In this document: in pieces, positions 3,001-22,000 of the stretch
Layout of the letters: each line of letters begins with the position of its first letter
Numbering within the stretch: the stretch's first letter is position 1
DNA from: Escherichia phage 121Q
Strand: one strand, 5' to 3'
Sequence record: NC_025447.1
DNA: 64,000 nt
Program-made: the position numbers and the translations under genes
Notes under the pieces: model-generated
The model's input: only the letters and a program-made list of their open reading frames with translations
Told to the model about the DNA's origin: nothing
Database searches by the model: none

Positions 3001-3612
3001 TTGTTGGTTAGATGCACCAGTAACGTTCAATGTTACTGCATTTAAGTCAGATAGATTAAACTCACCACCAAGTGTACCACTAATTGTCACATCGTTAAAT
3101 GTAGCAGTACCAGTACTACTAATATCTGTTGTACTTACATTAGTAATTTCTGCGGTATTAGCAGTAATTTTATCAAATGCAGCAGTAGTCCCAACATCAG
3201 CAGTAATATTACCTTTAAATGCTGTTGTTTCAGCAACTTCTAAGTTTTTAACTTTAGTTGCTTGTAGAGTGGTTGTACCAGCAGTTTGTGTAAAATCAGA
3301 ACCAACTGATACAGTACCGTTAAAGGTAGCGTTTGAATTAATTGTTGCTGTATCAGACCCGACAACTGCACTACCGATTGTAGTATTACCCTCAACACCA
3401 AGACCACCAGAAAGTGTTGCTTTGCCACCTACATCTAAAGTAGATGTAATGTTGGCAGTTGATGATTCAATGGCAGTAAAAGTTGCATTTGCAAAAGTTA
3501 CAGTACCATTTACAGTTAGGTTATTGTTGAAAACAGCATTTCCTTTGACTAAAAGATCCTTACCAACCGTACCAGCACCAGTAATATCTAAGTCAGTTTT
3601 TATTGAGTACAT
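1..3612 (-). CDS. Long tail fiber protein, partial (3' end lies beyond the window start); Gly/Thr/Ser/Asn-rich with internal tandem repeats
   Basis: Minus-strand ATG at 3610-3612 preceded by GGAGG; my translation begins MYSIKTDLDITGAGTVGKDLLVKGNAVFNNNLTVNGTV and stays open as far as I read. Absent from the ORF track, presumably because it has no stop inside the window. The plus-strand ORFs 386-3682 are its antisense frames. Confidence 0.6.
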   Translation of the reverse strand, partial: MYSIKTDLDITGAGTVGKDLLVKGNAVFNNNLTVNGTVTFANATFTAIESSTANITSTLDVGGKATLSGGLGVEGNTTIGSAVVGSDTATINSNATFNGTVSVGSDFTQTAGTTTLQATKVKNLEVAETTAFKGNITADVGTTAAFDKITANTAEITNVSTTDISSTGTATFNDVTISGTLGGEFNLSDLNAVTLNVTGASNQQGAVTFGANVTGINSTATFKDIRIGSNSESQTFRLSFPYTAPGKRPTVILQNEIQSELMSPANLTVLTSASFGNASLSSYGITGNGLNKLDYLTVSGNNTQSPDTPLLEVQKGKTKVADFEVTGTATIPNIESTGTANFNNINVSGLLGGTFQLDDINAVSLNVTGVTSLVGGVTLGSNITGYNSTASFKAISLGQNSQDAAVKLGFGYTAPGQRPTVILPNEVQSEVVSPSTLNVLKTATFGNASLSTYGITGNGLNKLDYLTITGNETQAPGTPFLQVGGKAILNDVEFTGTVTGLTVDVSGQDLTPNSVVAAANIKGATLESTGNTTVGAKLTVTGDIAGTTATLSGALSAGSVSSGSITGTTSVSAPTISASTEVTAPTITASGTVSGQTINGTNISATTLTAPTISGNTNFTENVDITGSLTVGSLDLSTTDINAKSITTTAGATIGGDLVVQGSFDLSAADLNVKSLTTSGIVKSNDLVNANVLPVLNSTTITATTVNADDITVTGSANLGTIYSSSSVLVGSTLTVTGETTTASLVTPTISNASGVTISNNTNVTGDLTVTGAVIPGSIDLATTDVNAKSITTTAGATIGGNLTVNGTVDLTTADVTVKSLTSTGAIVSNESTISSVLPKLQSTDATIATLGSTTANITNLNVTGASTVADVTSSGKVKAVSVETPTISNVDGVSISNNTSITGDLTVSGTVTPGAIDLSTTDVSAKSITTTAGANIGGDLVVSGTVDLSGADVSVKSLTSTGIITVSSAEGINVLPKVQSTEVTVSALNATNAVVSGDVSAATASISGAITGGSATLSGVGTALNVTNNATVGGVLTVGSITSAAENVSITKNTAITGNLAVSGTLTAGVIDLSTTDVSVKTLTSLGDATVQGNLTVDGTINLSSANIVGVTLESTGSTTVGTDLILTTGNITGSPSISGNLGVTGTTTLTGATTVSNTLNTAGKLTVNAGGIQVVAGGIQVDSGTITASSANISGSSTLNSA
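676..1800 (-). repeat. Three tandem copies of a ~400-bp coding repeat inside the long fiber gene
   Basis: Blocks starting near 676, 1088 and 1520 share long near-identical stretches (for example accagcggtagtagtaatggattttgcacttacatcagttgtgctcaaatc versus accagcagtagtagtaatggatttagcattaacatcagttgttgctagatc); boundaries approximate. Confidence 0.5.
2219..3210 (-). repeat. Two tandem copies of a ~480-bp coding repeat inside the long fiber gene
   Basis: Copy 1 about 2219-2700 and copy 2 about 2729-3210, both starting taatcta(g/a)tttgtttagacc...accagtaataccataag; encoded units share ...PGxRPTVILxNExQSExxSP...FGNASLSxYGITGNGLNKLDYLT.... Boundaries approximate. Confidence 0.5.
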
Positions 3613-3706
3613 TTATACCCTCCATTATAACCTTGTTAATATGTATATATTTAGTTTTATTATGCTGTTATCCAACAATTAATATGTTATTTGACAAAAG
3701 CAAATA

Positions 3707-3749
3707 TAATAAAAACCAGACTTATTTAGAACAAGTCTGGTTAATTTTT
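3707..3749. terminator. Bidirectional terminator hairpin between two fiber genes
   Basis: Stem CCAGACTT/AAGTCTGG (3716-3740) flanked by an A-run and a T-run. Confidence 0.55.
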
Positions 3750-4646
3750 TTACTTACCAGAGATGACAATCTTACCACTGAAAGAAATATCAGAAGTGAA
3801 GATTACATCACCAGTACTACTAATTTGTGTATCAGTCACTACCAATTCAAATGGAGATGACGAAACACTCCCAGGTGTTTTATTTGCATAAATTGAAATA
3901 TACAAATTATCTGGTGTTTGATTGTGTTCAGATGCAGGAATAGTGATTGTAAAATCACCATCACTAGAAACCCAATCTGCTTGGTTTACCAATTTACTAT
4001 AAGGTACTGTCATTGTTGTTGCTCCTATAATGTTTACTTTAACACTTGCATAATCTGTGATTTGACCAATCACATCAATTGTTATATCCCCAATACCACT
4101 AACTGTTACTGTGGTTTGGAATACTGATTCCAATGCAACATTACCTGGGTCACCTTGTAGTTGGATCATAATATCAGAACCTCTACCATGAACTGATTCT
4201 GGTAGTGTGTAAGTATAATGATCAGTAGTATCTGGCACTAATGTAAATGCAGAAACAGGAACTATTTCAGTAGTTACATATGAGCTATCAGTCCCAGGTG
4301 AGCTACCTTTAAATGGTTTCCAAATACCAAGATCTTTAATATAAATTTGAAGAACATTAGTACTATCAACCAAAAAGTAAACGTCACCATCTAGACCGAT
4401 CGAATCGGATGGTGCTGTTGTTCCACGTAAGATACCAGAACTACCACCACCACTGTGTGCGTTTAAATATCCCAATGTAACCAAGTGTGTGTTTGCAGTT
4501 GGTTCACCTGCTGAAATTGGAAGAAGTTGTGTTCCTGAGTAGTTTTGAATTTGCACAACACTACCATTTGTGGTAATCTGTGCACCATTCTTCCCAAGAA
4601 TGAAGGACTTCTTCATGGTTCCTTCTAAATTAGAAAAAACTGCCAT
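3750..4646 (-). CDS. Receptor-binding / tail fiber protein with N-terminal module shared with the 4663-6804 gene
   Basis: 298 aa; N-terminus MAVFSNLEGTMKKSFILGKNGAQI nearly identical to the neighbouring gene; GGAG ribosome-binding site upstream; terminator hairpin immediately downstream. Confidence 0.55.
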   Translation of the reverse strand: MAVFSNLEGTMKKSFILGKNGAQITTNGSVVQIQNYSGTQLLPISAGEPTANTHLVTLGYLNAHSGGGSSGILRGTTAPSDSIGLDGDVYFLVDSTNVLQIYIKDLGIWKPFKGSSPGTDSSYVTTEIVPVSAFTLVPDTTDHYTYTLPESVHGRGSDIMIQLQGDPGNVALESVFQTTVTVSGIGDITIDVIGQITDYASVKVNIIGATTMTVPYSKLVNQADWVSSDGDFTITIPASEHNQTPDNLYISIYANKTPGSVSSSPFELVVTDTQISSTGDVIFTSDISFSGKIVISGK

Positions 4647-4662
4647 TTTAATATAATCTCCT

Positions 4663-6804
4663 TTATGGTAGGGTTATGTAAGTTACGGGTTGGGCAGCTT
4701 TTAATGCTGCACCAGCGGCAGTTGCTGTTATGATAGGATCTGCAATATCAATTCTATATACGTTGTTTACAACATACACTGCACGAGTTATATACGTTCT
4801 CAAATCACCACCATTTTCACCAGCACCGGATATAATGATCTCAGTACCAGCAGCTTTTGCATATTGGTTTTCACCCCATGACACACCCAATGCTTCTATG
4901 TATGTTTGTCCTGCTACCGTTTGTCTAATTGTGTCATATTTTCCGAAAAAAGAACCACCAACAGTTACAATATATTTTCCACCCGATTGTTTATGAATAA
5001 TCGTGCCTTCAGAGAAATAGCGTCCCCCAGGAAAAGTATCGTATGGAATATAATATTGCTCAACTACAGGTATCAGTACTGGGCCACGGTGACCTGTACC
5101 ATCGATTGCAGTTGTAACTTTAAAGTTATTAGATGATTGGTCTATTCTGTCTACATACATTTTAGAAAAACTATATTTTGAAACATTACAATCATCTTGA
5201 ACAACACAGTTAGTCCAATTAGTATAAGTATATTTAGAGCGAGTATAGATACCACCACCTTCGCCTTCGGTAGAGAGGTGTTGACCAATTACATCTAATT
5301 CTTTAGTTCTAATATCACTAAATTTAGATGATGATGGCAAACCACGCCAAAGGATTTTAGAACAAGTGATATTGCTCAATTCTGTATTATTTAACCAATT
5401 ATCAGAACCGGAAGTATAAACAAGTATAGAAGACTCTGGAATATAGAGATTAGAAATTTTAAAGTTTCTAGGTGGTCCAGCAAAACGACCAGAAGTTACA
5501 CCCCAGTTTATTGAAACCATTCTATTTGTGATAGAAGGATCATTAAGCAAATGACCAGTCAACCCATCAATAATGAATTCTTTCGAACCATAAGTTATAA
5601 CACCAGCAGTGGTTAATCCAGTACCAACAGAAACTAAAGATGATGGATAAACTTCATTATTAAGTATTTTAAAGTCCATTCCTAATTCAACGTGTATACA
5701 TTGTCTAACATTATATAGTCTGTTATTTTTAATAACAAAGTTTCTGACATATTGTGTATCTGGTGCATCTAAACCATAAGGACCAGAACCAGCAACGCCA
5801 ATACCAATGCCCCAGTTTGAAAGTGGGATTGGAGCGTTAGAACCATCAACGTTTTCAATTACGTTTCCTTCAATCACAAAACCATCAGGATAATGTGAGT
5901 TAATTACGTTTAGTTCAATTGCATCACCATAGATATCATGAATATGGTTATATGAATATCTACCAACCTTCATTTTCTCACCAGTACCTTGTTGAAGAAC
6001 ACCATACTTACATTGGGTCATTTCATTAAAGCAAAAATCTATTGTTCCTGGTTGTGTCATACCTTGCATTAAAAATGCAGCAGTACTTGTGATGTTTATA
6101 AATTTATTAAAATAAAACTTACCATCTCCACCGAAGAATTTTAAATAACATCCAGTAAGTGTTGCAAATTGTATTTGGGAATTAATAACAGATACCATAG
6201 TACCACCGTTACCAGTAATAGTTCCCCCAAACCAAGTTACATCTTCTAGGTATATTGCAGTTTTGATACGGTAATTACCACCAGCCTGAATTTGGATTTT
6301 ATTTTCTTTAGCATAAGCAGCACATAAATTTACAGCAGCAGTGTCATCAGTTTCGCCATCACCTTTAGCACCAAATTCTTCTGGTGTTATATAAAACTGG
6401 GCCTGTTGAACTGTACCTCCAGTAATAAGTCCGATGAAATCACCACCATTTTTACTGGATAGAACTTTTTTATTAATGTATAATGATTTTACCCATGTAC
6501 CATTACTTTTTGCAAAAATATCAACAATACCATCTTCATCAATTTGAAAATACGTATTATTGTTCTTTCCTACATCATCGGTAGGGGGTACAACACCAAA
6601 TAATGCATTAGGGTTATCTTCAAGATATTTTACGTTAACTGCTGAATTAGGGTCAGATGAAGTTCCTACCTTCAGTGGTAGGAACTGTTCTCCTAGATAA
6701 TCTTTTATAGAAACTGAATCATTGATAAAATTTATTGAAGCACCTTTTTTCCCCAATATGAATTTGGGCTGCATAGTTCCTTCAAAATTAGAAAATACTG
6801 CCAT
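4663..6804 (-). CDS. Tailspike-like protein with pectate-lyase-type beta-helix motif (putative polysaccharide depolymerase)
   Basis: 713 aa; shared N-terminus MAVFSNFEGTMQPKFILGKKGASI; GDGETDDTAAV motif (encoded 6340-6363) typical of pectate lyase 3 / tailspike beta-helix domains; GGGAGG ribosome-binding site. Confidence 0.6.
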   Translation of the reverse strand: MAVFSNFEGTMQPKFILGKKGASINFINDSVSIKDYLGEQFLPLKVGTSSDPNSAVNVKYLEDNPNALFGVVPPTDDVGKNNNTYFQIDEDGIVDIFAKSNGTWVKSLYINKKVLSSKNGGDFIGLITGGTVQQAQFYITPEEFGAKGDGETDDTAAVNLCAAYAKENKIQIQAGGNYRIKTAIYLEDVTWFGGTITGNGGTMVSVINSQIQFATLTGCYLKFFGGDGKFYFNKFINITSTAAFLMQGMTQPGTIDFCFNEMTQCKYGVLQQGTGEKMKVGRYSYNHIHDIYGDAIELNVINSHYPDGFVIEGNVIENVDGSNAPIPLSNWGIGIGVAGSGPYGLDAPDTQYVRNFVIKNNRLYNVRQCIHVELGMDFKILNNEVYPSSLVSVGTGLTTAGVITYGSKEFIIDGLTGHLLNDPSITNRMVSINWGVTSGRFAGPPRNFKISNLYIPESSILVYTSGSDNWLNNTELSNITCSKILWRGLPSSSKFSDIRTKELDVIGQHLSTEGEGGGIYTRSKYTYTNWTNCVVQDDCNVSKYSFSKMYVDRIDQSSNNFKVTTAIDGTGHRGPVLIPVVEQYYIPYDTFPGGRYFSEGTIIHKQSGGKYIVTVGGSFFGKYDTIRQTVAGQTYIEALGVSWGENQYAKAAGTEIIISGAGENGGDLRTYITRAVYVVNNVYRIDIADPIITATAAGAALKAAQPVTYITLP

Positions 6805-6818
6805 TATGACATCCTCCC

Positions 6819-7970
6819 TTAAATATTATCTTGAATCGGTTGGATAGGAGCTTGCCATGAAAGAGTACAAATAATTTCCATTTTTCCATAAGGACTGTTG
6901 TTAACAGAATCGTTGAATACACATGAAATAATTTCATCAACATCGGATGCTGCATGATTAGTTTCATTAACAATAAAACGCATCTGACGATTGATATCAA
7001 AGTAGGAAGTTGGTGCAATTACCGTCCCGCCAATATCTTCTTGTGCTTCACCACCAAAACGTACAAACATATCAGTTACTGGAAGAGAATAAGGTTGTAT
7101 AACGTTTACATCAATATTAGAAACTACATATCCAGCAGGACATGTACCAATAACTAATAGTGCGTTAGTCCATGAGCTATCTATGGTATTTCTAATAGAA
7201 ATTGTATCTTTACCTGGTGCACCTGGTTCGCCTTGTATACCTTGAATACCTTGCTGGCCTTCTTTACCACGGAATAGAATACCCTCACTCCACTCTTTTG
7301 AAGGAGGGGTAGTTGTAGTTACTTCATCAACATAATATAGTTTTCCATCAGTGTTGTTATAAAAACAATAATCAACTGGAAGATTTTCAATACTTGGAAA
7401 TTGATCACCACTGCTATCAATATGGAAACGACCACGCGGACCTTGTTCACCACGGAAAGGTATACCATCACTCCAAGTAGCAGTTACACTTTGATAGAAA
7501 TAAAGTTTACCATCTTGAGTATTATAAAATGTATAGTTATTAAAAAGACCAGTTGTTGGGAAAGTAGTTCCAGCACTATCAATGTGGAACGGCTTACCCG
7601 CTTCACCCGTATCACCTTTACCAAACTCAACACTAATCCATGTACTTGTCGGATCTTGTGCATCATTTGATTTAAAGTATAGAGTACTGGTATTGTTAGC
7701 CAAGCTTAAGTAGCACCACCCAAGTGGTTCACCAACTTTAAATTGTTCGGAAGGAATTTCAAAACCAATCTCATTAGGATAAAAGTTTTTACCATTCTCG
7801 CCATTCTGTCCTACAACAAGACCTAAATCTTGAATTGTGTTATCTGCATAGGTTACAATTAAATGCCCAGCACCATTAATAACTAGACTTTTGATGCCGG
7901 AGTTATTACATGAACCATTAAATGAAATTGTCATAATATTTCCCTTGTATGAGTTAATGTCATATACCAA
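6819..7970 (-). CDS. Tail fiber protein with collagen-like Gly-X-Y triplets
   Basis: 383 aa; GEQGPRGR and GKEGQQGIQGIQGEPGAPGKD collagen-like runs, each preceded by a duplicated ~60-aa unit (FHIDSAGTTFP... and FHIDSSGDQFP...). Confidence 0.5.
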   Translation of the reverse strand: MVYDINSYKGNIMTISFNGSCNNSGIKSLVINGAGHLIVTYADNTIQDLGLVVGQNGENGKNFYPNEIGFEIPSEQFKVGEPLGWCYLSLANNTSTLYFKSNDAQDPTSTWISVEFGKGDTGEAGKPFHIDSAGTTFPTTGLFNNYTFYNTQDGKLYFYQSVTATWSDGIPFRGEQGPRGRFHIDSSGDQFPSIENLPVDYCFYNNTDGKLYYVDEVTTTTPPSKEWSEGILFRGKEGQQGIQGIQGEPGAPGKDTISIRNTIDSSWTNALLVIGTCPAGYVVSNIDVNVIQPYSLPVTDMFVRFGGEAQEDIGGTVIAPTSYFDINRQMRFIVNETNHAASDVDEIISCVFNDSVNNSPYGKMEIICTLSWQAPIQPIQDNI

Positions 7971-8044
7971 TATTTATCAGTACAAAATACATTTCGTTAT
8001 CATTAATAAATAAATGAAAGTTCACTACTAAAAGGGCTTAAACA

Positions 8045-8542
8045 ATGGCATTAAGATCAAAAGACTTTCTCTTCAGAAGAAAAACAAAAGATGGTTCATG
8101 GCAAGATTTTCCTGAATCTGATAGCTGGTATCCAGCTAACTTGGATTATCACTGGAATGAACAAACGTTACCACTAGCAAGTGGTGGCTACTATGGCTGT
8201 ACTACAGGTTTACATACGATTTCATTTACACTACGTAATTTTATTGGTAGAATTTATGTGTTAGCTACATTAGCTAGTAATCCTACTGATGATGATTGGT
8301 TTCCAATTAAATTCACTGAAAGTTGTAATTATTATCTTGAATTTACTGATATGGTTATTTTAAATCCAAATGGTGGGGATTTAATTAGACAACAAGGAAC
8401 TACCGGAACATTTGCTGAAACAGTAACTGGTAATTTTACTTACCTTAAAGTTGGTATAGACCGTGATTATATTAGTAAGTATCCATCAGATGTCCAAAAA
8501 AGTTTAGCTGGGAAGTTAGAACAAATTTTAATTAACTACTAA
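8045..8542 (+). CDS. Hypothetical protein (first gene of plus-strand island)
   Basis: 165-aa ORF with AAGGG ribosome-binding site; no recognisable motif. Confidence 0.4.
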   Translation: MALRSKDFLFRRKTKDGSWQDFPESDSWYPANLDYHWNEQTLPLASGGYYGCTTGLHTISFTLRNFIGRIYVLATLASNPTDDDWFPIKFTESCNYYLEFTDMVILNPNGGDLIRQQGTTGTFAETVTGNFTYLKVGIDRDYISKYPSDVQKSLAGKLEQILINY

Positions 8543-8551
8543 GGATTAGAA

Positions 8552-9160
8552 ATGAAATTAGAAACAGAACAACCAAAACTATTTGTTAAAGGTCATGTCC
8601 TAATTACTGACGTTACTGATCCATCAAATCAAAAAATCGTTTTAGATAAATCTAACGCTATTCACCCTGAAAATATGAGTACTGCCATTGCTAATGCGTT
8701 AGCATATAATCAAGACAGTACTGGTATTCCTATTGGTTCTATTAGCGAGATGCGTTTTGGTAATGGTGGTACAGTAGTTTTAAGTACTGGGCGTGTTACT
8801 TATAAAAAACCACGTGTTACATCATTTGGTGGTTTGTATTCACAAACATATTTGAAAAAAATCAACCCAAGAATTACGGCTGGTATCGATTCACAATATA
8901 ATAATATTACGACTGTTCATATACCAGGTCAGTCCTATACTGATATTGTATGTATTTGTACTTTAGGCTTAGGTGAACCATCAGATCAAGGTGTGAGTTC
9001 AGGGACAAGCATGGACGGAACATATGTGTTTGATGAATTGGGATTATACACCGATGGTGATAGTGGTATTCCTTTAACACATATTATTTTCCACCCAGTT
9101 GAAAAAAGTGCAAACCGTGTTTTGCAAATTAAATACACTGTGCGTGTACAACTACAATAA
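8552..9160 (+). CDS. Hypothetical protein
   Basis: 202-aa ORF tightly packed after the previous gene; GGA ribosome-binding site. Confidence 0.4.
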   Translation: MKLETEQPKLFVKGHVLITDVTDPSNQKIVLDKSNAIHPENMSTAIANALAYNQDSTGIPIGSISEMRFGNGGTVVLSTGRVTYKKPRVTSFGGLYSQTYLKKINPRITAGIDSQYNNITTVHIPGQSYTDIVCICTLGLGEPSDQGVSSGTSMDGTYVFDELGLYTDGDSGIPLTHIIFHPVEKSANRVLQIKYTVRVQLQ

Positions 9161-9172
9161 TGGGGTCATATA

Positions 9173-10273
9173 ATGAGTGTTAACTATACAATTTATCGAA
9201 GTAATGGTAGTGTTTATGCTACCATTCCAAATAACGTTATTTTAGGTCCAAATCAGCCAGGTAGTAACCCAGTTCCATTAAATTTAGTTGGTAGAAACAA
9301 AGTAAGTTATGGTCAAGCATGGAATGAAAACTTTTTACATTTAGTTGAAAACTTCAGTTCAGCTTCAGCACCACGTGGTAACGTAAATGGTCAACTTTGG
9401 TATCGAAATACTGGAAGTACTGGTGAGTTATTAATATCATTAGTGGATAATGCTAGACAACCAGCAGATATGGTAAGTGAAGCGGAATGGGCTTCTATTC
9501 CAATGATAACCGTATTCAACACTGTACCAGATGGTGAAAACAGTGTTATGGGTCGTATGGTATTAACCAGCAATGGTGATTCACTTCGTGTTTTGATGAA
9601 AAACAAAGAATGGCGTGAAATTCAAACATCTCGACCAGAAAACAAAGAATATACATCATTATTAGATATTAACTATGATAATGGAAAAAAATACATAGAG
9701 TTTACACAAAGTAACAGTACTAAACCAATTGCGTATTTTAACTTAGGCGGTACTTCACAAGTAGATACAAATAACTGGACAACATTAACTAATGGTACTG
9801 GTGTATTTGAATTTGGTAGCAACTATTTCTATGAATTAAAAATTATGATTAGAGAAGTAAATGATTCTTCTGGTGAGATAGTTTCTCTTCCATATAATTC
9901 AAAAACCTTTTTTATAAAAGGGCAATTCTATGTAGATAATCAAGGAACTTTTGTTCCTGGTTCGGTTGGGGCAAGTCAAATGCCAGACCCACGTAGGATT
10001 ACACAATTAGAATCCATAAAAGATGTTATTACCAGTAGTCGCCCAAACTGGGACGTAAATATTGTTATTAATGGTGTAGATCCATCTATCCCAAATCCTA
10101 ATGGAACATCTAAAGCTGATTATGAAAATTGGGTTATCAATTCTCTAAACTCAAATAAAAATTTAGGTTTTCGAGTTGATGGTAGCATTAGTAATCTAAC
10201 TGCTGGTGAATCCGTTAAACTACAAGCATCCGTGTTGTTAAATATTACAGGTATTCCGATTATTGGAGTATAA
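9173..10273 (+). CDS. Hypothetical protein, possibly fiber or baseplate associated
   Basis: 366-aa ORF, Asn/Ser/Thr/Gly-rich like the neighbouring fiber proteins; followed by a terminator hairpin. Confidence 0.4.
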   Translation: MSVNYTIYRSNGSVYATIPNNVILGPNQPGSNPVPLNLVGRNKVSYGQAWNENFLHLVENFSSASAPRGNVNGQLWYRNTGSTGELLISLVDNARQPADMVSEAEWASIPMITVFNTVPDGENSVMGRMVLTSNGDSLRVLMKNKEWREIQTSRPENKEYTSLLDINYDNGKKYIEFTQSNSTKPIAYFNLGGTSQVDTNNWTTLTNGTGVFEFGSNYFYELKIMIREVNDSSGEIVSLPYNSKTFFIKGQFYVDNQGTFVPGSVGASQMPDPRRITQLESIKDVITSSRPNWDVNIVINGVDPSIPNPNGTSKADYENWVINSLNSNKNLGFRVDGSISNLTAGESVKLQASVLLNITGIPIIGV

Positions 10274-10304
10274 AAAAAGGAGCCATGTGGCTCCTTTTTG
10301 TTTT
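10272..10304. terminator. Bidirectional rho-independent terminator
   Basis: A-run, stem GGAGCC/GGCTCC (10279-10294), T-run; sits between convergent genes. Confidence 0.6.
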
Positions 10305-10767
10305 AATATCTATATGGTAAACTGTTGACAAACTGTGTACCTTCACGTATACTTTCCCATAGTGAGTAAAAATCTTTCATTAAGTTTGTGTTAAGTAAAG
10401 TATTTTTAGCACCAGGGTGTAATGGTTTAGGCCAAGAACCAATTCTAACCCAAGCATAACCAGAGCTTTCATGATTTAAAGTTGGTACAAATTCATTCTC
10501 AACTACAATAACAAATGAATAATATTTAAATTTACCATTTTTTGTACAAAATACATCAAACGGTATAATATCAATAATGTTAGGTATTGAGTTGCCCAAC
10601 TCTTCTTTAATTTCTCGCATCAGACCTTGTAGTGGTGTTTCGTTATGTTCAAGCTTTCCACCAACAAATGCCCAGTTGTTAGAATAGGTACTTCTTTCAG
10701 AACGCAAGTTTAACATCATATGTCCAGTACTTTTTGATAAAAATATAGCACCAACCGCTTCATTCAT
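10303..10767 (-). CDS. Nudix hydrolase
   Basis: 154 aa; perfect Nudix box GGKLEHNETPLQGLMREIKEELG (G-x5-E-x7-REUxEExGU). Confidence 0.8.
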   Translation of the reverse strand: MNEAVGAIFLSKSTGHMMLNLRSERSTYSNNWAFVGGKLEHNETPLQGLMREIKEELGNSIPNIIDIIPFDVFCTKNGKFKYYSFVIVVENEFVPTLNHESSGYAWVRIGSWPKPLHPGAKNTLLNTNLMKDFYSLWESIREGTQFVNSLPYRY

Positions 10768-10780
10768 AACAACACCTCCT

Positions 10781-12124
10781 TTATTTGTCAGTGAAAGTTA
10801 TTTTCCAATATCCCTGACGATACACAGGCATGATACTTTTATGCCATTTAAATTTGTCATTATATCTATAATAACCATTGTCTTCTTTATTATAAATGTA
10901 ATTTCGTACAGTAGATGGATCAATTAATTGTGCACCATCATTTGTAATTTTAAACAAATAATTTGATGGGATTTCGGTTTCTTTATAAATGATGTTATGT
11001 ATACTGTTATTTACATAATATTGTTCAGGTAATGCACTTGAAAGTACTGAATCTTTCTGCACAAACCCATGTATAGTGTAATCAACAGTATAATTGGTAT
11101 TATCAAGCTGTACTATAATTTTGTTGGCATCTTCATTTTCACCATACGACGCTATATGACCTTTTAGTGGGTTGTCTTCTTCAATAGATTGTTGAAATTT
11201 AATCCCTACTTTTTTGTCATCAAAATTTGGTTCTAGATATTTAAGATATTTTTCCCATGAATATATTCCACCGTTGGGAGAAACCGCAGATAGCGATTGG
11301 CTAACCAAGGTAAGTTGGTATGTATCAGGTAAATTATACTTGGAATTAGTAATTTCTTCAACTTTAATGCATAAATTCTTGGGTGTAAAAACATCTGTTA
11401 TTATATCTGAATAATTTCCCATTTCAAAATCAAATTCGTCACGAGCACCTTTAATATTTGTAGTAATCTGTTGGATTAATTTTGGTTTTTCAACAATAGC
11501 TGGTAAAGAAAACCATATTGTCGTTTCAAATGTTAAAACCATTATATCCAAATCTGGGTCAGTTCCTTGTGGAAAACCACGAGTAGAAAACTGACAATCT
11601 ATTAGTTCAACATCACTAAGCGATGTCCAATCTAACGGGTTATCAGATAATTGAAGTTGTATACTAGGTGCAAACAAAGTTGAGATTTGTTCGAATAATT
11701 CCATTTTAGTTTGAGTTTGAGTTACCCAAATATTCAAATCAAACGTAAAAGTCCAAGGTACTGGGTTATGTCTTACAATTTTGTATTGTGTGTCAAGATC
11801 TTTTGTGTACTCATTAATAGCAGGGGACTTGTTAGACCCCATTACTATAGTTTCGTTGGCATTAGAACGAATATTTTTACGATCCAACTTTAGTTGATTA
11901 ACACTTATGGTCATTATAGGTGCTGATGGGAGAACATTTTCACTATTCCCATTTATAATTGCTGCTGCCATTCTTGAAATATCGGCATAGCGACATGGAA
12001 CCTTTTTGTATTTTGGGTTTCCATTAGCATCAATACCATTTTGTACTTGAAATTCACCAAAAACTCTGATAAGATGTTTCAGTACTCTGCGAAATTGACC
12101 GTCATAATAATAATCTATTTTCAT
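10781..12124 (-). CDS. Hypothetical protein, likely structural
   Basis: 447-aa ORF; 4-nt overlap with the upstream gene suggests translational coupling. Confidence 0.4.
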   Translation of the reverse strand: MKIDYYYDGQFRRVLKHLIRVFGEFQVQNGIDANGNPKYKKVPCRYADISRMAAAIINGNSENVLPSAPIMTISVNQLKLDRKNIRSNANETIVMGSNKSPAINEYTKDLDTQYKIVRHNPVPWTFTFDLNIWVTQTQTKMELFEQISTLFAPSIQLQLSDNPLDWTSLSDVELIDCQFSTRGFPQGTDPDLDIMVLTFETTIWFSLPAIVEKPKLIQQITTNIKGARDEFDFEMGNYSDIITDVFTPKNLCIKVEEITNSKYNLPDTYQLTLVSQSLSAVSPNGGIYSWEKYLKYLEPNFDDKKVGIKFQQSIEEDNPLKGHIASYGENEDANKIIVQLDNTNYTVDYTIHGFVQKDSVLSSALPEQYYVNNSIHNIIYKETEIPSNYLFKITNDGAQLIDPSTVRNYIYNKEDNGYYRYNDKFKWHKSIMPVYRQGYWKITFTDK

Positions 12125-13614
12125 TCTGTGTCCTTATGTATGCGATAAACAGTATTAGGTTTAACTGCGTCATGTAATGGAACTTTGTTATCACTATTTA
12201 CAAACTGTGTAAGTGCTAAGTCTGCACCTTCCCACGGTTTTCTTCCACCATAATCAAAAATAACCCATGAATTCTTAGTTGCATTGAATTCCCATAACGT
12301 AACTGGAGTATAATCGGTGCGATAGAAATAGTCACCATCTACTGCATCAGTTGGGAACATATTTCCTTCAGGGACTGTACCTCGTGCTGGTGGAATTTTA
12401 GGACGATAATCTTGTTGCGAATCAATATTACCATATACACAATTGGACGTGAATGGTTCATTGACATAAGTTACCTTTGGTTCCCCCCACTTGTCATCAT
12501 TATACTGATAAATGTGTGGTTCTTTATAAAAAATACAAAAATCTTCCACATCTTCTGGTGGAACATCACTGGTAGTATATTCTACATCACAATTTAACCA
12601 TTTTTTAGCACTTTTATCATATTGATACAACGTATAACCTGTCACATCTGCGTCATTTTCTTTAAAGAAGAAGTCACCATCCATTGGTTTTCTGGGAAAG
12701 ATGGTTCCACGCTTGACTTCCACAGAAATCCATGTATCATTAACAAACTCTTTGAGTACTGGGTATGTTTTTTTCAAAAAATACATTCCATCGGCAGGTT
12801 CTTCTGGAAAATCATAACCGTTAAGCATATATTTTGATAAATCTACTGTATCAGGTCGATCATCATACAAATGTTCATTTGTATAATGAATATAGGGTAC
12901 TTCATCATCAGCTTGCATGATGATACGGTTCATGATATCCATTTCATTGCCATAGTTACTGTTTTCCGACGAACCATCATCGGTATTTCCATTACCATTA
13001 TTAGGGTCATCTGGATTATCAGGATAATTATTGTTACCGAGTAAATCGGAGTACTCAGGTGAGTCGGTTAGCGGTTTAACTCTAAGTTTATAAATGTGAT
13101 GTTGCCACGTAACCGAGTATCCCTCAGATGTACGAAATGCATCTTGGACGACATAGAAGCGGTTTAGACCTGTATCTTTACCCAATACATCAAAATCACG
13201 TAAATTTGGTAGTTCTATCACATCCCCTGGCATGATTTTTCTACCTAAACGCTGCATCATTGTATTATAATGGATTGTGATGTCCATAGTGTTGAAATTA
13301 AAGAACAATCCTGGGATTTTCAAGTCTGGAGTTGCTTCTTGAACTTGATAGACACAACTAAGTGTGATAGCTTCAAGGTTGTAGTTTCTGTTTGGTGTGT
13401 CACCAAAAATTAAATCGCCAATACTTGACACAACTGATCCTGAAGATGTATAATCACCTCCATAGGATAAGTCAGTGTTGTCAGCAACTTGTTTTGGACC
13501 GACATATGCATAAAGCCACATGTCAACTCCACCAATGTTGTATTGTTCAGCAATGGCAGAATCAATGAACTTGTAATCATTGGTTCTACCTTTTTTCCAC
13601 ATTCTATATGTCAT
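12121..13614 (-). CDS. Hypothetical protein with low-complexity Asn/Asp/Gly/Pro segment
   Basis: ORF track starts at a TTG (13626); I prefer the ATG at 13612-13614, which has GGAGA 5 nt upstream. Contains PDNPDDPNNGNGNTDDGSSENSNYGN. Confidence 0.4.
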   Translation of the reverse strand: MTYRMWKKGRTNDYKFIDSAIAEQYNIGGVDMWLYAYVGPKQVADNTDLSYGGDYTSSGSVVSSIGDLIFGDTPNRNYNLEAITLSCVYQVQEATPDLKIPGLFFNFNTMDITIHYNTMMQRLGRKIMPGDVIELPNLRDFDVLGKDTGLNRFYVVQDAFRTSEGYSVTWQHHIYKLRVKPLTDSPEYSDLLGNNNYPDNPDDPNNGNGNTDDGSSENSNYGNEMDIMNRIIMQADDEVPYIHYTNEHLYDDRPDTVDLSKYMLNGYDFPEEPADGMYFLKKTYPVLKEFVNDTWISVEVKRGTIFPRKPMDGDFFFKENDADVTGYTLYQYDKSAKKWLNCDVEYTTSDVPPEDVEDFCIFYKEPHIYQYNDDKWGEPKVTYVNEPFTSNCVYGNIDSQQDYRPKIPPARGTVPEGNMFPTDAVDGDYFYRTDYTPVTLWEFNATKNSWVIFDYGGRKPWEGADLALTQFVNSDNKVPLHDAVKPNTVYRIHKDTE

Positions 13615-13654
13615 GATTGTCTCCAAAATAAATCGGGTATATCTTTATTTACCT

Positions 13655-13684: not shown

Positions 13685-13724
13685 GTTTATTAATTAGAGT
13701 GACGTGAATCACATAGGAGAATAC

Positions 13725-16013
13725 ATGAATCTTACTCAATTGTTCAAAAAAAGCGACGAACTGGCAACATCTCTAGGTCATACATTCTTGACTATTGACC
13801 ACGTAAGTGCCACAGTACTGACTATTGATAGCATCAAGAACGTATTTGAAGATATGAACATTGATGCAGACAAACTGCACAACCGCCTGATGAACTATCT
13901 TAAAAATACAACAGTTCCACATGCACCAAAAAGTGTTAAAGATGAAGACGCGAATCGAACTTCACTTCTAGTGAATCGCGTTGTACATGAGCTTTCTAAA
14001 AAATCAGTCATTGAACAACTAAAAAGTGATGATTTTTCGATTGATGCATATTTTGTTCTATTCGAATGTCTGTCTTTCCCTAACACAGCACTAGAAGCTG
14101 CGTTAAAAGAAGAAGGTGTTAGCTGTACTGAAGCTGCACGTGCATTACAGAAACACGTTGAGTCACTTGATAAGGGTATCAACTTACAAAGTATTAATGA
14201 CGAACCGATTGGAGATAAAAAAGTGGCCCAACAGCAGCAATCATCTAAACAAAAAGGTTTGGAAGACTATACAACGAATCTAACTGCTCTTGCAAAAGAA
14301 GGCAAACTAGATCCTATGATTGGTCGCCAGAAAGAATTGTCTGCATTGATTGAGACTCTTGCTCGCAAAACCAAAAAGAATGCTATTCTCACTGGTGAAG
14401 CTGGTGTAGGTAAAACACAAATCATCGACGGGCTTGCACAAGCTATTGCTGATGGTAACGTACCTGAACACCTGAAAGACGTTGAAATTCTTTCACTAAA
14501 TGTTGGTGCATTGACTGCTGGTACTAAGTATCGTGGTGAATTTGAAGAACGCATCGACAATTTGCTAAAAGAACTAAAGAAACGTGAAAATACTATTGTT
14601 TTCATTGATGAAATTCATATTATGGTTGGGGCTGGTTCCGCAAGTAATGGTTCTATGGACATGAGCAATATGCTTAAGCCAGCACTTTCACGTGGTGAGA
14701 TTCGTGTAATTGGTGCAACAACATATGATGAATATCGTAAAAATATCGAGAAAGATAGTGCATTAACTCGTCGTTTTATGAAAATTGACGTAGTTGAGCC
14801 GACAATTGATGAAACTCGTGCAATTGTTAATGGTTTGAAACCAACGTATGAAAAATTCCATAATGTTGAGTTCACATCTGATGCAATGGATGCTGTAATT
14901 TCTCTCAGTGATAAATTCCTGAAGAATAAGCACTTCCCAGATAAAGCAATTGATCTAATGGATGCTGCTGCGGCTAAAGTTCGTTCACGTGACAACAATA
15001 GTAAGCTAATTACTGCCAATTTGATTCAAGAAGTTGTTGCTGGTATTGCCAATTTGGATATCAACGTGGTTGCATGTACTGAAAGTGATCGTATGCGTAA
15101 TCTACCAGATGCACTACGCTCACGTGTATACGGTCAAGAGGAAGCTATTCAAAAATTAGTTGATAACGTGATGGTAGCTCGTGCAGGACTGCGTGACAAA
15201 TCTAGTGTTCAGGGTGCATTTATGTTTGTTGGACCATCTGGTACTGGTAAAACAGAAATTACCAAAGCATTAGCAGACGCAACTGGTGCGGAACTCATTC
15301 GCTTTGATATGTCAGAATTTTCTCAAGAACATACTGTTTCTAAACTAATTGGTTCACCTCCAGGTTATGTTGGTCATGATTCTGGTAACGGTTTACTGTT
15401 GGATAAAATTGAGCAGTTCCCTAATGCAGTACTGTTACTTGATGAAATTGAAAAAGCAGATCGTAAAGTACTACTAACCTTCCTACAGGTTTTGGATGAA
15501 GGTCGTCTGACTGGTTCTCAAGGTAAAACTGTATATTTTAATAACGTAACTGTTATTATGACTACAAACCTTGGTGCGGCTGATTCAACAAAGCGTAGCA
15601 TTGGTATGAGCGGTAGTGACACTGCACAGGACAAGGCAATTAAAGCATTCTTGCCACCAGAGTTTATTAACCGTATTGATAGTATCGTTACGTTTAAAGA
15701 CCTAAGCAGTGAAGCTATTGACAGCATCATTGATAAGTTCATGGGTGGTTTGAATGAACAAGTCAAAGACCGTAATGTTAAAGTTACATTAACAAAAGCT
15801 GCACGTGAATGGCTTGCGAAAAATGGGGTAAAAGTTGGTATGGGTGCACGTCCAATGAAACGTACCATTGAACAAAACATTCGTGTGCCACTAGCTAAAG
15901 AAATGTTGTGTGGTTCACTTGTGAATGGTGGTAACATTACATTTGATGTTATTGATGGTAAAATCGGTATTAAGCCGAAACGTACCAAAGCTGTAGATAA
16001 AGCACTAGTATAA
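13725..16013 (+). CDS. ClpA-like AAA+ unfoldase (two nucleotide-binding domains, ClpP-docking-type IGM loop)
   Basis: Walker [10 protein letters not shown] (domain 1) and GPSGTGKTE (domain 2); Walker B FIDEIH and LLLDEIEKA; segment [10 protein letters not shown]...[20 protein letters not shown] resembles the E. coli ClpA IGL-loop region. Start moved to the ATG at 13725 (AGGAGA 5 nt upstream); the ORF-track start is a GTG. Confidence 0.85.
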
Positions 16014-16050: not shown

Positions 16051-19000
16051 TTACTTAACTAATAATATATTTTTAATATCATTACCACTAACTTGTAGAC
16101 TATCAGTGTATACTGAAAGATCTATAGTGTAACTATTTTGTGTGTAACGTTTTAACATATCATAATTACCTAAATTAATTCCATTGAAAGAATATGTAGT
16201 ATTAAGTTTAAAATCATGTTCTGCACTATACATTACACCACGGAGTAAATTATTTGCATTTCTAACTTCAACTTTTTCATATCCAATCGATATAATATCA
16301 TTCATGTTTGCGGCTGAACCGGATAAAACATTATTTCTAATACTATAAGGACTTATTGATTTAGGTTGAGAAACATAGGTTGTATTTTCTTCACTAATGG
16401 TTGTGATGTTAGTAACAGTACCACCAACAACACCGATATACATACCGTCAACCATTGGGAATCCATAAACCCATATCCCTTCATTATTTCTAAACGGTTG
16501 AATAACACTTGAATCATATTCGATAACGTTGATTTCTAAACTATCAGTCATTTTAGTTCTTGCCAATTCACTAAGAACTCCCGCACCCGTAATTGGTAAG
16601 TTATAACCGTTATCGATAGTAATTCCATCAACATCAAATATTTCATTAGAGATTATCCAAACGTCAACGTCATCTGGTGTTATTCCGTCATTGTACTTAC
16701 CACCATTTAAAGTAGTATCGTAGAAAACATCATAATTAATTACATCAATGGTGTAATTTCTATTTTGTTCATACAATTTAATACCATTCTTGACAAATTC
16801 AGGGTCAGCAAATGTTCTAACACGAACAATGTTCAATGCTAGAGGCTGTACTGGCTCATTTTGTTGTGCAAGAGTGATGTTATCATAACGGAGAACTGCA
16901 CCAGTACTCTCATCAATCAATTCAATCGTTTCCTTACCTGTATTTCTTACAGTGAATAGGATCGGAGTTGTATTGTTTTTGATGTTAGATACACGCAAGA
17001 TTGTTTCCCATGTGTGATTTTGATATCTCACAAAATCTTCACCATCAGGAGTGAAAATCATCACCTTATCACCATCAGATAGGTCATTGTCAACTATTTC
17101 TGCTTCAGTTAAGCTATTAATAGATCTCACACGATAGAAATATTTTTCATCAAACTTCGATGTTGTTTTATTAATATCATTTTCAATCTTAGCATATGAA
17201 GGAATACTTACAATTGCTTCTGTATGTTTATATGGATTGATAATTGCCATACCTTCAGTTTGATATCTGCTGTTATCACGTAATTGTACAAGAGATACAT
17301 TGTCAAACCCATATCCATCAACTGTAAATCTAATTTGACCTACATCACGCCCAGAAGGGTTTATGTCAGATATATCCACAATATAAGGATCAACTTCATC
17401 ATCTTTAACTTCCCATTTTATTGAAGAAGTTTGAGATTCCAATGCTAGGTTATCAAATGCATTCATATCATTGAAGTACTTAGCTTCAGTAATACTATCA
17501 AGTATATATTGATAATCAGAATACATTGGATTATTTTGATCTAGTGGTAAATCATCAAGATTTATTTCAGCTAGTTCAACCATTTCACCATTTGTGATAA
17601 AATAATCTTCCATGAAATCATCAATACTTTGTTCATCAGGTATACTTTGATATACACCGTTAACATTTAAGTAAACATATTTTCGTGGAATCATTGTAAT
17701 TGCATAGATATCAATTGGGGTCTTACTAAGAATCTCTTCAGCTTTTTCGTACTTATCAGTAGCGTCTTTGTCGAATAACCCTCTCATACCTGCTAATACG
17801 TGAATAGCATCAGTATAGAAACGGGTATCACCACCTACTTCATCATAACGATAAACATATACACCATACTCAACTTCAAGTTTAACTTTTACTTCATAGT
17901 CTGATGCGTCAGGATTTTTATCTTTAATTAATGAAATGTATTTTTGATACAATTCACTGCTTATTTCAAAATATCCATAGTTATAATCATTACTAGAAGA
18001 AAAGCCTAATGGAAGTCTAGTACTAGGATTGTCATTATAAGTAAGTCCACTAAATCCACATCCAACTTCATCGTGAATTTTCTCATCACTTATATCTTTA
18101 TAAAGTTTCAAACGGTTTGCCAATGTGTTATACTGAACATATTGTCTAAGGTCAGTAAACATATCGTTATGCGTTGATTCTTTATAAACACGTTCCAATG
18201 TAGCAGTGAATTCATCAGTTGCTTCTAAATCTTCCGCATGGTCTTTATACCACTGGTTAACGCCATATGCTGTTCCTAGTGTTACATCCAATTCTGGATA
18301 GTAGATTTGCATTTGATAAGCAATAAGAAGATCGAAAGTTTCTTCACTATATTCTGGGAAAGAATATATATAACGTTGTAATTCATAGTTACTAACAGCA
18401 TCCTTTTCATTGGATTGATATTTGTTATTAACACTTACTAATTCATTTATGCTTGCCAAATCTTCATTTGGTTTACACTGAATATTATCATAATGCATAA
18501 TAATATCAATTTCTTGGAATCTTCTATTTGGTGTAACGAAATCACTTGGTAGTGAACCTACCTGTTCCCATTTTTGGGTAATTTCATTAAATTGAGCGTA
18601 CTCATAATCCCAAATATCTTTTTCAGTTTTGATCCAAGAACCGTCAACGAAAATATATCCATTAGGATCTAAATCATTACATAGACCTTTTATTAAATCA
18701 TCATCAGATGTCTTTTGCTCTATTTGTGAACGAATTTTAGTTCTATAAGGTTTAACTTCTTCAAAATATTCAACAATTTGATTAATCAAATTATCGTTTG
18801 AATAGTTTTGAACTAATGATTGTTCCAAACCAACAATATAGATATATGATGTTTTAAATACCCAATCCACAACACTTTGTTCAACATGTACATATTTGAC
18901 CATATCAAAAACAATTTCGCTTTGATGTAAATCGAAAGAATTTTTGAGTAAAGCTAGTGCTTTACGAACGTTGATTTCACGATTGCTTAGTGATCCATTA

Positions 19001-22000
19001 TCATTATGAACACTATAATCTGCGTAAAGCATATCATTGAGTTCAACTGTACTGTTTTCACGACCAATCGCTTTCCAATAAATTGAATCGCGTGATTGTG
19101 ATTTAATATACAATGTCCAAATGTTTTCACTATCGGTAACTCTGATAATATCGCCAACTTGGTAGTTTTTAGTATTAGCATCTTCTAAGCTTGACTCTTG
19201 TGTATAAGTCGTGTTACTATCATACCCAACATCATACCAATCAGCATATGACCAGTACTGAGTCATGTCCAATGAAGTTCCCAGTGATTCAACATAATCA
19301 GATTGTTTAATCATTTTATGTTGACCCTCACCTTTGTTCTCTAACGTTATAGTAACAACACTACCCGCGTTTGCTGGACTATTCATTAACTGAATATATC
19401 CATTTTCGTCGAAGTGAATAAAATAAACAGCACTAGAAGTTAATGGATTTGGTAGATATCCACTAGTACTTAAAATAACAGCGTCATTTTCTTTAAATTT
19501 ATCACTTTCAACTGCAATAACTAATTCATTATTGTAAGACAATACACGGAAAGAAACTTCATTCGGATTAACTTCAGTGGTTTTAACATTAAACACATCT
19601 TCCATAACAACACTATTAGTGGTTATGTTTTGTGACCTATAATAATTATTAGCACTTTCTACAAAGTTTCTACGAGCTTCTATAACATTTTGGAACCAAG
19701 TTTTGTTTGAACCTAAACCGTTATCAACATCTGGATATAATAAATTAATCACAGAACCTGATTCAGTTGTTTCTTGACCAATTAGTGAGTTCCACATTGA
19801 ATCCCAAATTAGTGGGTTAAAGTTATAGCTGTCACCTTCTTTACATAGTTGATACTGGTCATGTTTAACAACTTCAGTACTATCCATGTAATAAGAAACA
19901 GTTAAAATACTGGTATCATCATTCACTTTAAATTGCATATTACTAAGAATAAACGAGTTTTCATTGATTGGAGCGAACCAAGGAATGTTTAGCTGTGTTG
20001 GATCTTTAATAATACGAGCAATGTCAGTACATGATTTTGTTCTGGTATGTAGTGGTGGTACATAAATTGTATCACGTACCCAGAAATAGTATTTTGTCAC
20101 ATAACTATCAGTTGAACTATCATATTCCAAAAATGTACTATAATTATCTTCAAGTGCAGTTCCACTTGGTAGATACATAGTATTATTTTTGTTTTTCTTA
20201 GCAACATCTTTACAGTATTTGTCCCAGTTATATGGCTCAACTGGTGAACAAACCCACTCTAACACATCAATTGTACTATGTGGTAATAAACGACCCCAGT
20301 TGTAACGTTTGTATTCATTGGTTGCATCAATATCAACATTACCGTCTGCGTCATAAATTGCACGAGTATAATCCAAATAAAATGCAGTGCTAGTGTTCCA
20401 CCATACTTGACCAACTTTATCAGCACCCCAAGCCTGGATTAACTCTCCATTACTATTATACTGTGCAGGATCAACTGGTGAAGTATATGTTACGTTTTGC
20501 ATAGCCGCACCTGGAATAACACCATTAATTGGGTCATAAACGTTTAGATATAGCTCAGTAATGTTAGTACGTTCATCATATGTCGTTGGACGATCAAATA
20601 AAGTACTTTGTGGTGCTTTAAAACTATATTTCTTGTCAATGTAAGCTTGACGTTCATCAGTACTGGCAAAACGTGATACATAACGATACAAACGTGGACG
20701 TGTATCTGGATCAGTAAATTCAATATCAATAGAAGTGTCAAATGGAACTACCATAACTTTAGGATCAGAACCAGCAGTATAATATTGACTTTCTACTGTT
20801 AAAGTATCTGGCATAAAGTTAGTTTCATCAACAAAATAATAATAATCACCATCTTCAAGTGGTACATTATCAGTTAAAGTTACTTTACAAAATTGTTCAG
20901 CATACACATCGGTATTTTCAATAGGTGTTATAGAAACCATTTGCACATTAGTATCAACCAATTCAAAAATGTTCCACAAACCATTACCGTCTTTAAACAT
21001 CCACACAGATTCAGGATTTTCACCTTTACCATTAGTATAAGTTATGCGGTCATTATATGCAGTACTGAAATCTTTTGTTGTGTACGATACTTCATCCAAT
21101 GTTACTGGACCAATATCTGGAAGTTGGATGTTTTCACTTCTTCCACTACGCATTGGGAATGAGAACTTACCATTTGGACGTGTAATCCAACGAGGATCTT
21201 TACCCTGCTCACCGAAGTATACAATATGATTACCATTACCATTTGAAGTTGCATTTACATCAAAAGAAACCATTTGAGGTTGTTGTTTAAATTGGTCATT
21301 GATTAGTTTAAATTGAAGGTTTTTCTTACCATCAATATTACCATATGTACCAATTTTAAATGCCCATTCTTGTAATGCTTTATATTCATCAGTGTCATAT
21401 GATTTAGAAACACGAAGTACACGTTCTAAAACTTGGTTAGTACCTTTATCGTGAATGAATCCTTTATAGAAATCAACACGACTAACATCACTGCTAATCA
21501 TACGCTGTAGATAATCACGAGATTGATAACCAATCAAATGGTTTGACAACTCTTGTAATTGTACATCACTTACTGGAGTTTCACTATCATAATAATGTTG
21601 GAAATCCGACACTAATTTTTCAAATGATGGTAGTGTTCCAGCTTCCAAGATAATAAATCCAGGAGCTTGTAGGCGACCAGTCCATGAACCAGTAATATAT
21701 CCATACATTTTAATTAGTTCTTGAATAGAACCATATGTTGGCTGATAAATGTAATCACCAAAAATAGTTTTATCATCAAAAATAACAGCATGTTCATATG
21801 AACACAAACTTAAACGAATCAATGCAATGCGTTTATTAGATTCTAAAGTTCTAACAGTGAAGATATTTCCAATACGAGAAGTTTCAATTTCATATTGGCG
21901 AATACCTTGGTTATTATCATCAAGTAATGACCATACACCACCATTATTTTGCGTAATAGATTGTACTGAACCAAAGTCTGCCCCAAATTTAGCGTTTGCA

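Follow-up and report, generated by a model that had tools for sequence, protein, structure and literature searches.

The 154-residue protein encoded at positions 10303–10767 of the window (the whole 64,000-nucleotide stretch of DNA analysed here) is, judged by its sequence, a genuine Nudix hydrolase; its gene closes a three-gene operon whose other members specify a virion protein and a gp15-like protein. A sequence-only reading had already recognised the hydrolase, an assignment that we confirm (Pfam NUDIX PF00293: 57 bits, E=2.6e-15, above the gathering score of 21.1; PHROG 1198 ‘MutT/NUDIX hydrolase’: E=4.6e-45). The same reading took the gene to be inter-operon accessory cargo, and this we would correct: by its gene order and conservation it is a core gene rather than loose cargo, and across a widespread clade of jumbo phages few members of the tail-completion module are better conserved.

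As an object, the gene is of a known kind and already carries annotations. Its region shares 98% identity with the PBECO4/121Q/phAPEC6/G17 group of Escherichia jumbo phages (Asteriusvirus), and several GenBank records contain identical (100%) proteins already named ‘MutT/NUDIX hydrolase’; the 121Q record has ‘MutT-like protein’, with ‘nudG CTP pyrophosphohydrolase’, ‘hypothetical protein’ and ‘8-oxo-dGTPase’ (96.8% identical, Turkey3) also in use for the same or near-identical proteins. The significance of the gene lies in what it represents: an uncharacterised, phage-only subfamily that recurs in injected polyvalent proteins, beside ADP-ribosyltransferases.

The Nudix domain and its conserved residues

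Three features define the protein at the level of its primary structure:

10303–10767, minus strand: Nudix hydrolase coding sequence, 154 aa (ATG at 10767, TAA at 10303–10305)
10591–10659, minus strand: Nudix box, G37 to N59 (GX5EX7REUXEEXG, plus N for the final U)
10411–10530, minus strand: subfamily hallmark region, residues 80–119, invariant or nearly so in an alignment of 40 homologues

Reading along the box (G37-KLEHN-E43-TPLQGLM-R51-E52-I-K-E55-E56-L-G58-N59), we see that all of the catalytic and metal-binding positions of the consensus GX5EX7REUXEEXGU are kept. The sole deviation is Asn59, found where the consensus has Ile, Leu or Val; the box, previously described as ‘perfect’, is therefore better called near-perfect, the position itself being variable (N/D/T/S/E) among homologues. 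A pattern search of the six frames of the window returned no second Nudix box, and there were 0 matches in 200 shuffled six-frame sets.

The catalytic glutamates hold up on proper alignment: across 40 homologues (41–96% identity) E43, E52, E55 and E56 are invariant, as are R51, G36, G37 and G58. Beyond the box, the same alignment reveals a second set of invariant residues—F80, Y82, E92, F93, P95, N98, E100, G103, W106, L116, H117 and G119—which together make up the hallmark pattern F80-x-Y82, E92-F93-x-P95-x-L97-N98-x-E100, G103, W106, W-P-x-P-L116-H117-x-G119; E100 aligns with a conserved Glu of a MutT homologue (5x1x). The predicted fold is a confident alpha/beta/alpha Nudix fold with its catalytic helix. 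On these residues the catalytic apparatus reads as intact and strongly constrained, and we regard it as near certain that the product is a catalytically competent, stand-alone Nudix pyrophosphohydrolase, in which E52, E55 and E56 of the Nudix helix would mediate metal-dependent hydrolysis of a nucleoside-diphosphate-X bond, probably assisted by E100.

The C-terminal tail (residues 145–154; 10306–10335, minus strand) is modelled with low confidence, the block mean pLDDT being 81 for residues 141–150 and 44 thereafter. A motif within it, F-x-N-S-L-P-[YF], is kept across Rak2-like and Vibrio-phage members and is missing from shorter environmental homologues; the tail may be a short docking peptide.

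Operon structure and conservation of the locus

Around the Nudix gene, the following elements can be placed:

9173–10273, plus strand: convergent virion structural protein gene, 366 aa (PHROG 14394, E=8e-222), ending at the shared terminator
10274–10299, serving both strands: bidirectional intrinsic terminator common to two convergent operons (terminator scan and folding)
10775–10780, minus strand: Shine-Dalgarno sequence AGGAGG, 7 nt upstream of the Nudix ATG and inside the 13-nt gap that follows the gp15-like stop
10781–12124, minus strand: gp15-like tail sheath stabiliser / tail completion protein, 447 aa (PF16724 T4-gp15_tss, E=2.3e-20)
12121–13626, minus strand: first gene of the operon, virion structural protein (PHROG 11591, E=5.6e-272)
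13646–13652, minus strand: GTAAATA, one mismatch to the late-promoter-like motif ATAAATA (motif search; ~31 nt upstream of the ATG at 13614)

The bidirectional terminator reported beside the gene is indeed present: its hairpin, GGAGCC-ATGT-GGCTCC, is flanked by an A-run and a T-run, folds with energies of -16.7 kcal/mol (plus strand) and -16.2 kcal/mol (minus strand), and has a T-run after the stem on both strands; the phage G17 record annotates a terminator at the equivalent of 10274–10299. The description of the gene as lying ‘between structural operons’ holds only loosely: it converges with a plus-strand structural operon (8045–10273) but is itself the last cistron of a minus-strand one. 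The gp15-like gene is immediately upstream in the same operon, with the Nudix ATG just 13 nt past its stop, and the terminator scan found no terminator-like site between the two. Further upstream, the ATG of the gp15-like gene overlaps the stop of the virion protein gene (ATGA), an arrangement that suggests translational coupling along the operon; the virion protein itself may start at TTG 13626 (501 aa) or, as annotated in G17, at ATG 13614 (497 aa).

For the promoter, we infer that GTAAATA at 13646–13652 drives the operon. In CBB, a related phage, ATAAATA has been proposed as the late promoter for structural genes (PMC5259590). In the window, an exact copy stands ahead of the plus-strand structural operon; upstream of both operons, it is only this looser ATAAATA/GTAAATA motif that is present. 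The T4-type late promoter was also considered and rejected, its consensus TATAAATA occurring 7 times in the window against 11 expected, and so not being enriched. Co-transcription of Nudix with gp15, and late timing, would follow from this layout: the enzyme would probably be translated off the operon mRNA through its own AGGAGG, with transcription stopping at the shared bidirectional terminator.

Several other features of the neighbourhood are recorded here in their own right. Two exact copies of ATAAATA face outward (7977, minus; 8006, plus) from a divergent intergenic region (7971–8012) upstream of structural genes, a pair that agrees with the motif put forward as late-promoter-like in CBB and GAP32. 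The gene at 10781–12124 is labelled ‘tail sheath’ (PHROG 11196) in several GenBank and Pharokka records, which looks like a misnomer given that Pfam identifies a T4 gp15-type stabiliser/terminator with a C-terminal extension of ~200 aa. A ClpA-like AAA+ ATPase gene (13704–16013, plus strand) sits divergently beside the operon, an arrangement found also in G17, CBB and a Vibrio phage. Beyond it, 16051–26052 (minus strand) is a single ORF of 3333 aa, a virion structural protein in relatives; it corresponds to phAPEC6 gp245 (381.88 kDa), which was detected in virions.

To ask how firmly the gene is tied to its neighbours, we turned to IMG/VR, where 572 stretches encode relatives of the Nudix protein, and analysed the best 80 loci (41–100% identity). 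Since these are the closest of the 572, the figures that follow describe the closest clade and not the whole subfamily. A gp15-like gene lies directly upstream, on the same strand, in 79 of the best 80, the lone exception having just 509 nt of contig upstream; the intervening gap has a median of 11 nt and is no longer than 100 nt in 74 of the 79. Upstream of gp15, a homologue of the virion protein is found in 70 of the 80. Within this same set of loci the Nudix protein is more conserved than gp15 (78/79) and than the upstream virion protein (69/70); its dN/dS is ~0.10–0.15 where dS is unsaturated, and the GC content of the gene (32.5%) is close to that of the window (34.6%).

These observations bear directly on the cargo interpretation. 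The gene is small and adjoins a terminator at an operon boundary, as might be expected of a recently acquired accessory gene (‘moron’) parked between operons; we give that origin next to no credence, since synteny is kept down to 41% identity, conservation exceeds that of the neighbours, composition matches the phage and the gene is translationally linked to gp15, across a 13-nt gap that holds an AGGAGG and no terminator.

The order gp15-then-Nudix is also seen in RaK2, CBB, the marine Vibrio phage 2.275.O and the Pseudomonas phage PA5oct (55% identity). In the more distant jumbo phages Atu_ph07, Phosso and RsoM2USA there is no Nudix gene of this family at that site, so the gp15–Nudix linkage marks a large clade and not all myoviruses. 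In Atu_ph07 (3552–8837) and Phosso (3543–8708), phages of ~470–490 kb, a lysozyme gene lies between the virion-protein homologue and the gp15-like gene; both have an annotated NAD synthetase 2–3 kb downstream of gp15, and Phosso also a nicotinate phosphoribosyltransferase. The deposited PA5oct protein (gp161, MK797984.1) has 105 aa and starts at locus position 5103 (region 5001–5420); this start is probably too far downstream, as homology to the family extends a further 102 nt in the upstream direction, to 5001 (query residue 4).

A phage-restricted subfamily, its fusions and the virion

Comparison across the wider family places the protein in a phage-restricted subfamily that, by motifs and score, is distinct from T4 NudE, MutT, NudI, NudG and RppH. 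In a word-based search the phage-type relatives (E<=1e-26) stand apart from the cellular MutT-like proteins, all of which have E>=3e-8. With a family profile, the window Nudix scores 247 bits and standalone hits, among the matches listed, 140–207; scores then descend through phiRSL1 ORF109 (95), the best solved structure (a MutT homologue, 46.6) and E. coli MutT (35.6). Kinship with T4 NudE was examined and rejected, the identity being 24% over 103 residues (pairwise E=7e-4) and the profile score 17.8 bits, below that of MutT. An exhaustive profile search gave 108 representatives at E<=1e-30.

Of the best 150 profile matches, 70 are multidomain proteins of 200–1700 aa in which the domain scores 118–135 bits, and in all 70 the hallmark residues of the subfamily are conserved; the largest are classic polyvalent proteins. 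Their partners include ART-PolyVal (7/70), ADPrib_exo_Tox (2/70), a lysozyme or other cell-wall (peptidoglycan) hydrolase (9/70) and ParB_N (2/70). Every one matches PHROG 1198, and 31 match the portal-Nudix PHROG 15528; the window protein shares the motifs of this ‘polyvalent-type’ set (PHROG 1198/6216/15528) and has a high profile score.

One metagenomic myovirus contig encodes a Nudix–lysozyme fusion beside a gp13-like neck gene, a 2H/Acb1-like phosphoesterase and a CCA-adding enzyme. On this contig (L089, 7074–11623) the fusion is followed, on the same strand, by one gene of 225 aa and then by the 2H phosphoesterase (with a faint Acb1 match) and the CCA-adding enzyme; beside the neck gene, this looks like an RNA-repair or anti-signalling cluster. 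Elsewhere, in phiRSL1, there are NadM-like and pncB genes close to the relative, and a 28%-identical relative from Motura (QDH83582.1) has been given by Iyer et al. as an example, predicted computationally, of an ADPr-processing Nudix in jumbo phages (PMC7824862).

The company kept by the subfamily raises the question of whether the protein is itself a low-copy component, associated with the neck or the lumen of the tail, that leaves the particle together with the DNA and acts at the very start of infection. This is a matter of location and timing, independent of the substrate. The gene is co-encoded with gp15 and the virion protein in related loci; members of the subfamily have portal, ART-PolyVal and lysozyme modules as fusion partners; and Iyer et al. 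(2022) make the case that phages package, and inject, the Nudix proteins of their late clusters (PMC9503650). Set against this are the published proteomes of three phages, in which mass spectrometry of virions detected the flanking products and not the Nudix orthologues (phAPEC6 gp249, CBB_232 and PA5oct gp161). In phAPEC6, the 98% identical phage, gp248, gp250c, gp251c and gp253 were detected and gp249 is not listed; in CBB, CBB_231, 233 and 234 were detected and CBB_232 is not listed; in PA5oct, gp162 and gp163 were detected and gp161 is not flagged. The detected proteins include the gp15-like product in all three (phAPEC6 gp248, CBB_233, PA5oct gp162) and the 366-aa product of the convergent gene in two (phAPEC6 gp250c, CBB_231). 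A protein of low copy number could escape such analyses; saying this, the Nudix sequence offers several good tryptic peptides and was still undetected, for which reason we consider virion association improbable. Nor is there a gp15–Nudix fusion among the 70 multidomain relatives, PF16724 being absent from the Pfam families listed for them. The enzyme is, then, probably not in the particle.

Candidate substrates and known systems

Curated families do not yield a substrate, as every NCBIfam equivalog scores far under its cut-off: MutT (NF008044, 36.8 against 148; TIGR00586, 35.2 against 97.9), NudG (NF007834, 32.1 against 156), NudI (NF012016, 31.8 against 95) and RppH (NF001936-8, best 27.9 against 118). 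The name ‘nudG’ in GenBank is accordingly unsupported. The NadM type (NMN adenylyltransferase fusion, NF003791) also falls away, at 19 against 409, the 154-aa protein being single-domain. Neither a substrate test for the subfamily nor an experiment on phage Nudix action against Thoeris, CBASS or ADPr systems was found in the literature searched.

Our tentative preference, held with less than even confidence, is for a substrate derived from NAD or ADP-ribose. It comes from the motifs of the specificity region, which are common to the domains found in ART-containing injected effectors; counting against it, ART fusions are a minority (9/70). Classic markers exist downstream of the Nudix box, a Pro 15–16 residues on denoting ADPRase and SQPWPFPxS denoting NudC; neither is evident in the protein sequence. 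Under this proposal the enzyme would hydrolyse the pyrophosphate bond of an NDP-X substrate in the infected cytoplasm, candidates being free ADPr or an ADPr-derived immune signal, NAD-capped RNA and ADP-ribosyl adducts. Its purpose would be host takeover or counter-defence, the protein being made with the late structural proteins and not carried in the particle. The role in host nucleotide signalling previously floated for the gene is compatible with the domain fusions of its close relatives and remains speculative.

The main rival to the NAD/ADP-ribose proposal is a (d)NTP pyrophosphatase of the MutT, NudI or NudG kind. Such an enzyme would clean or shape the nucleotide pool by hydrolysing damaged or unwanted (d)NTPs: converting dCTP to dCMP, for example, to feed dCMP deaminase and thymidylate synthase, or destroying defence-made nucleotide analogues. 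The best solved-structure matches are, if weakly, to NudI, MutT and NudG, and the best NCBIfam matches are to MutT, NudG and NudI; the layout is MutT-like, with a W-x-F-x-GGK lead-in and E100 in register with the conserved Glu of 5x1x. In phiRSL1, BcepSauron and Motura, a dCMP deaminase is encoded within a few genes of the distant relative, and a phage of low GC (34.6% over the window; E. coli has ~51%) would fit such a role. The three dCMP-deaminase contexts may, however, be non-independent, the equivalog scores are far under their cut-offs, and a pool-shaping role leaves unexplained both the joining of the domain to ART, lysozyme and portal modules in injected polyvalent proteins and its tie to a tail-completion operon rather than to replication genes. 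We place it on the unlikely side of possible; were it correct, this would be an ordinary gene.

A further candidate substrate is the RNA 5′ end. A pyrophosphohydrolase or decapping enzyme of the RppH, Dcp2 or poxvirus D10 kind would act late in infection, turning pppRNA or capped RNA into pRNA and so hastening the RNase E-dependent turnover of host or early phage mRNA. The best single-sequence PDB match is to Bdellovibrio RppH (3ees, E=4e-7), Dcp2 Nudix domains align over residues 25–137, E. coli RppH appears among the Foldseek matches, relatives give weak Nudt16-like Pfam matches, and eukaryotic large DNA viruses do encode decapping Nudix enzymes (PMC9503650). The similarity is generic, at 17–21% identity in structural alignments, and the RppH equivalogs score no better than 27.9 against 118 and lower; we judge this assignment quite unlikely.

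Returning to NAD- and ADP-ribose-derived substrates, a stronger form of the proposal would make the gp15-linked Nudix a dedicated counter-defence enzyme of a very large clade of myoviruses, erasing an immune signal derived from ADP-ribose or nucleotides, or fixing ADP-ribosyl marks. Its targets might be Thoeris-type cADPR isomers, His-ADPR or defence-made NTP analogues; alternatively, it might convert ADP-ribosyl marks into irremovable phosphoribosyl marks. Delivery would be as a low-copy neck/tail passenger ejected with the DNA, or through co-expression with defence-triggering late proteins. We see this as a long shot. Should the enzyme prove to act on an immune signal or on ADP-ribosyl adducts, it would represent a new class of phage counter-defence enzyme and, if the counter-defence reading is true, the first Nudix-type immune-signal eraser in phages.

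Amongst known systems, the only characterised phage Nudix in the literature searched is T4 NudE.1, a member of a different clade. Like the window protein, T4 NudE / NudE.1 is a small stand-alone phage Nudix; T4 nudE, by contrast, adjoins the lysozyme gene e and not gene 15. This T4 enzyme cleaves ADPr, Ap3A, FAD and NAD; it also removes the NAD cap from RNA in vitro (bioRxiv 10.1101/2024.04.04.588121). RppH, BdRppH, Dcp2 and the viral decapping Nudix enzymes act on RNA 5′ ends and show (Dcp2, BdRppH) weak similarity over the full domain, with the window protein below all of the RppH family thresholds. E. coli MutT, NudI and NudG share the canonical Nudix fold and box with it, but are only 19–28% identical; by eye, we take the invariant His117 to be the presumed counterpart of MutT Asn119, which functions in base recognition.

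Closer at hand are the Nudix domains fused to polyvalent, portal and lysozyme modules, which belong to the same subfamily (38–39% identical to the query, 118–135 bits) and retain TGRxLLxxRS, FxY, EFxPxLNxE, W and WPxPLHxG as the window protein does; unlike them, it stands alone at 154 aa, is fused to neither an effector nor a virion module, and was not detected in virions. Closest of all are the Rak2-like/Asteriusvirus orthologues (PBECO4, 121Q, phAPEC6, CBB, GAP32 and PA5oct; PHROG 1198), 55–100% identical, located at the same site after the gp15-like gene and differing from the window protein in nothing of substance; of these, phAPEC6, PA5oct and CBB provide culturable model phages with an orthologue.
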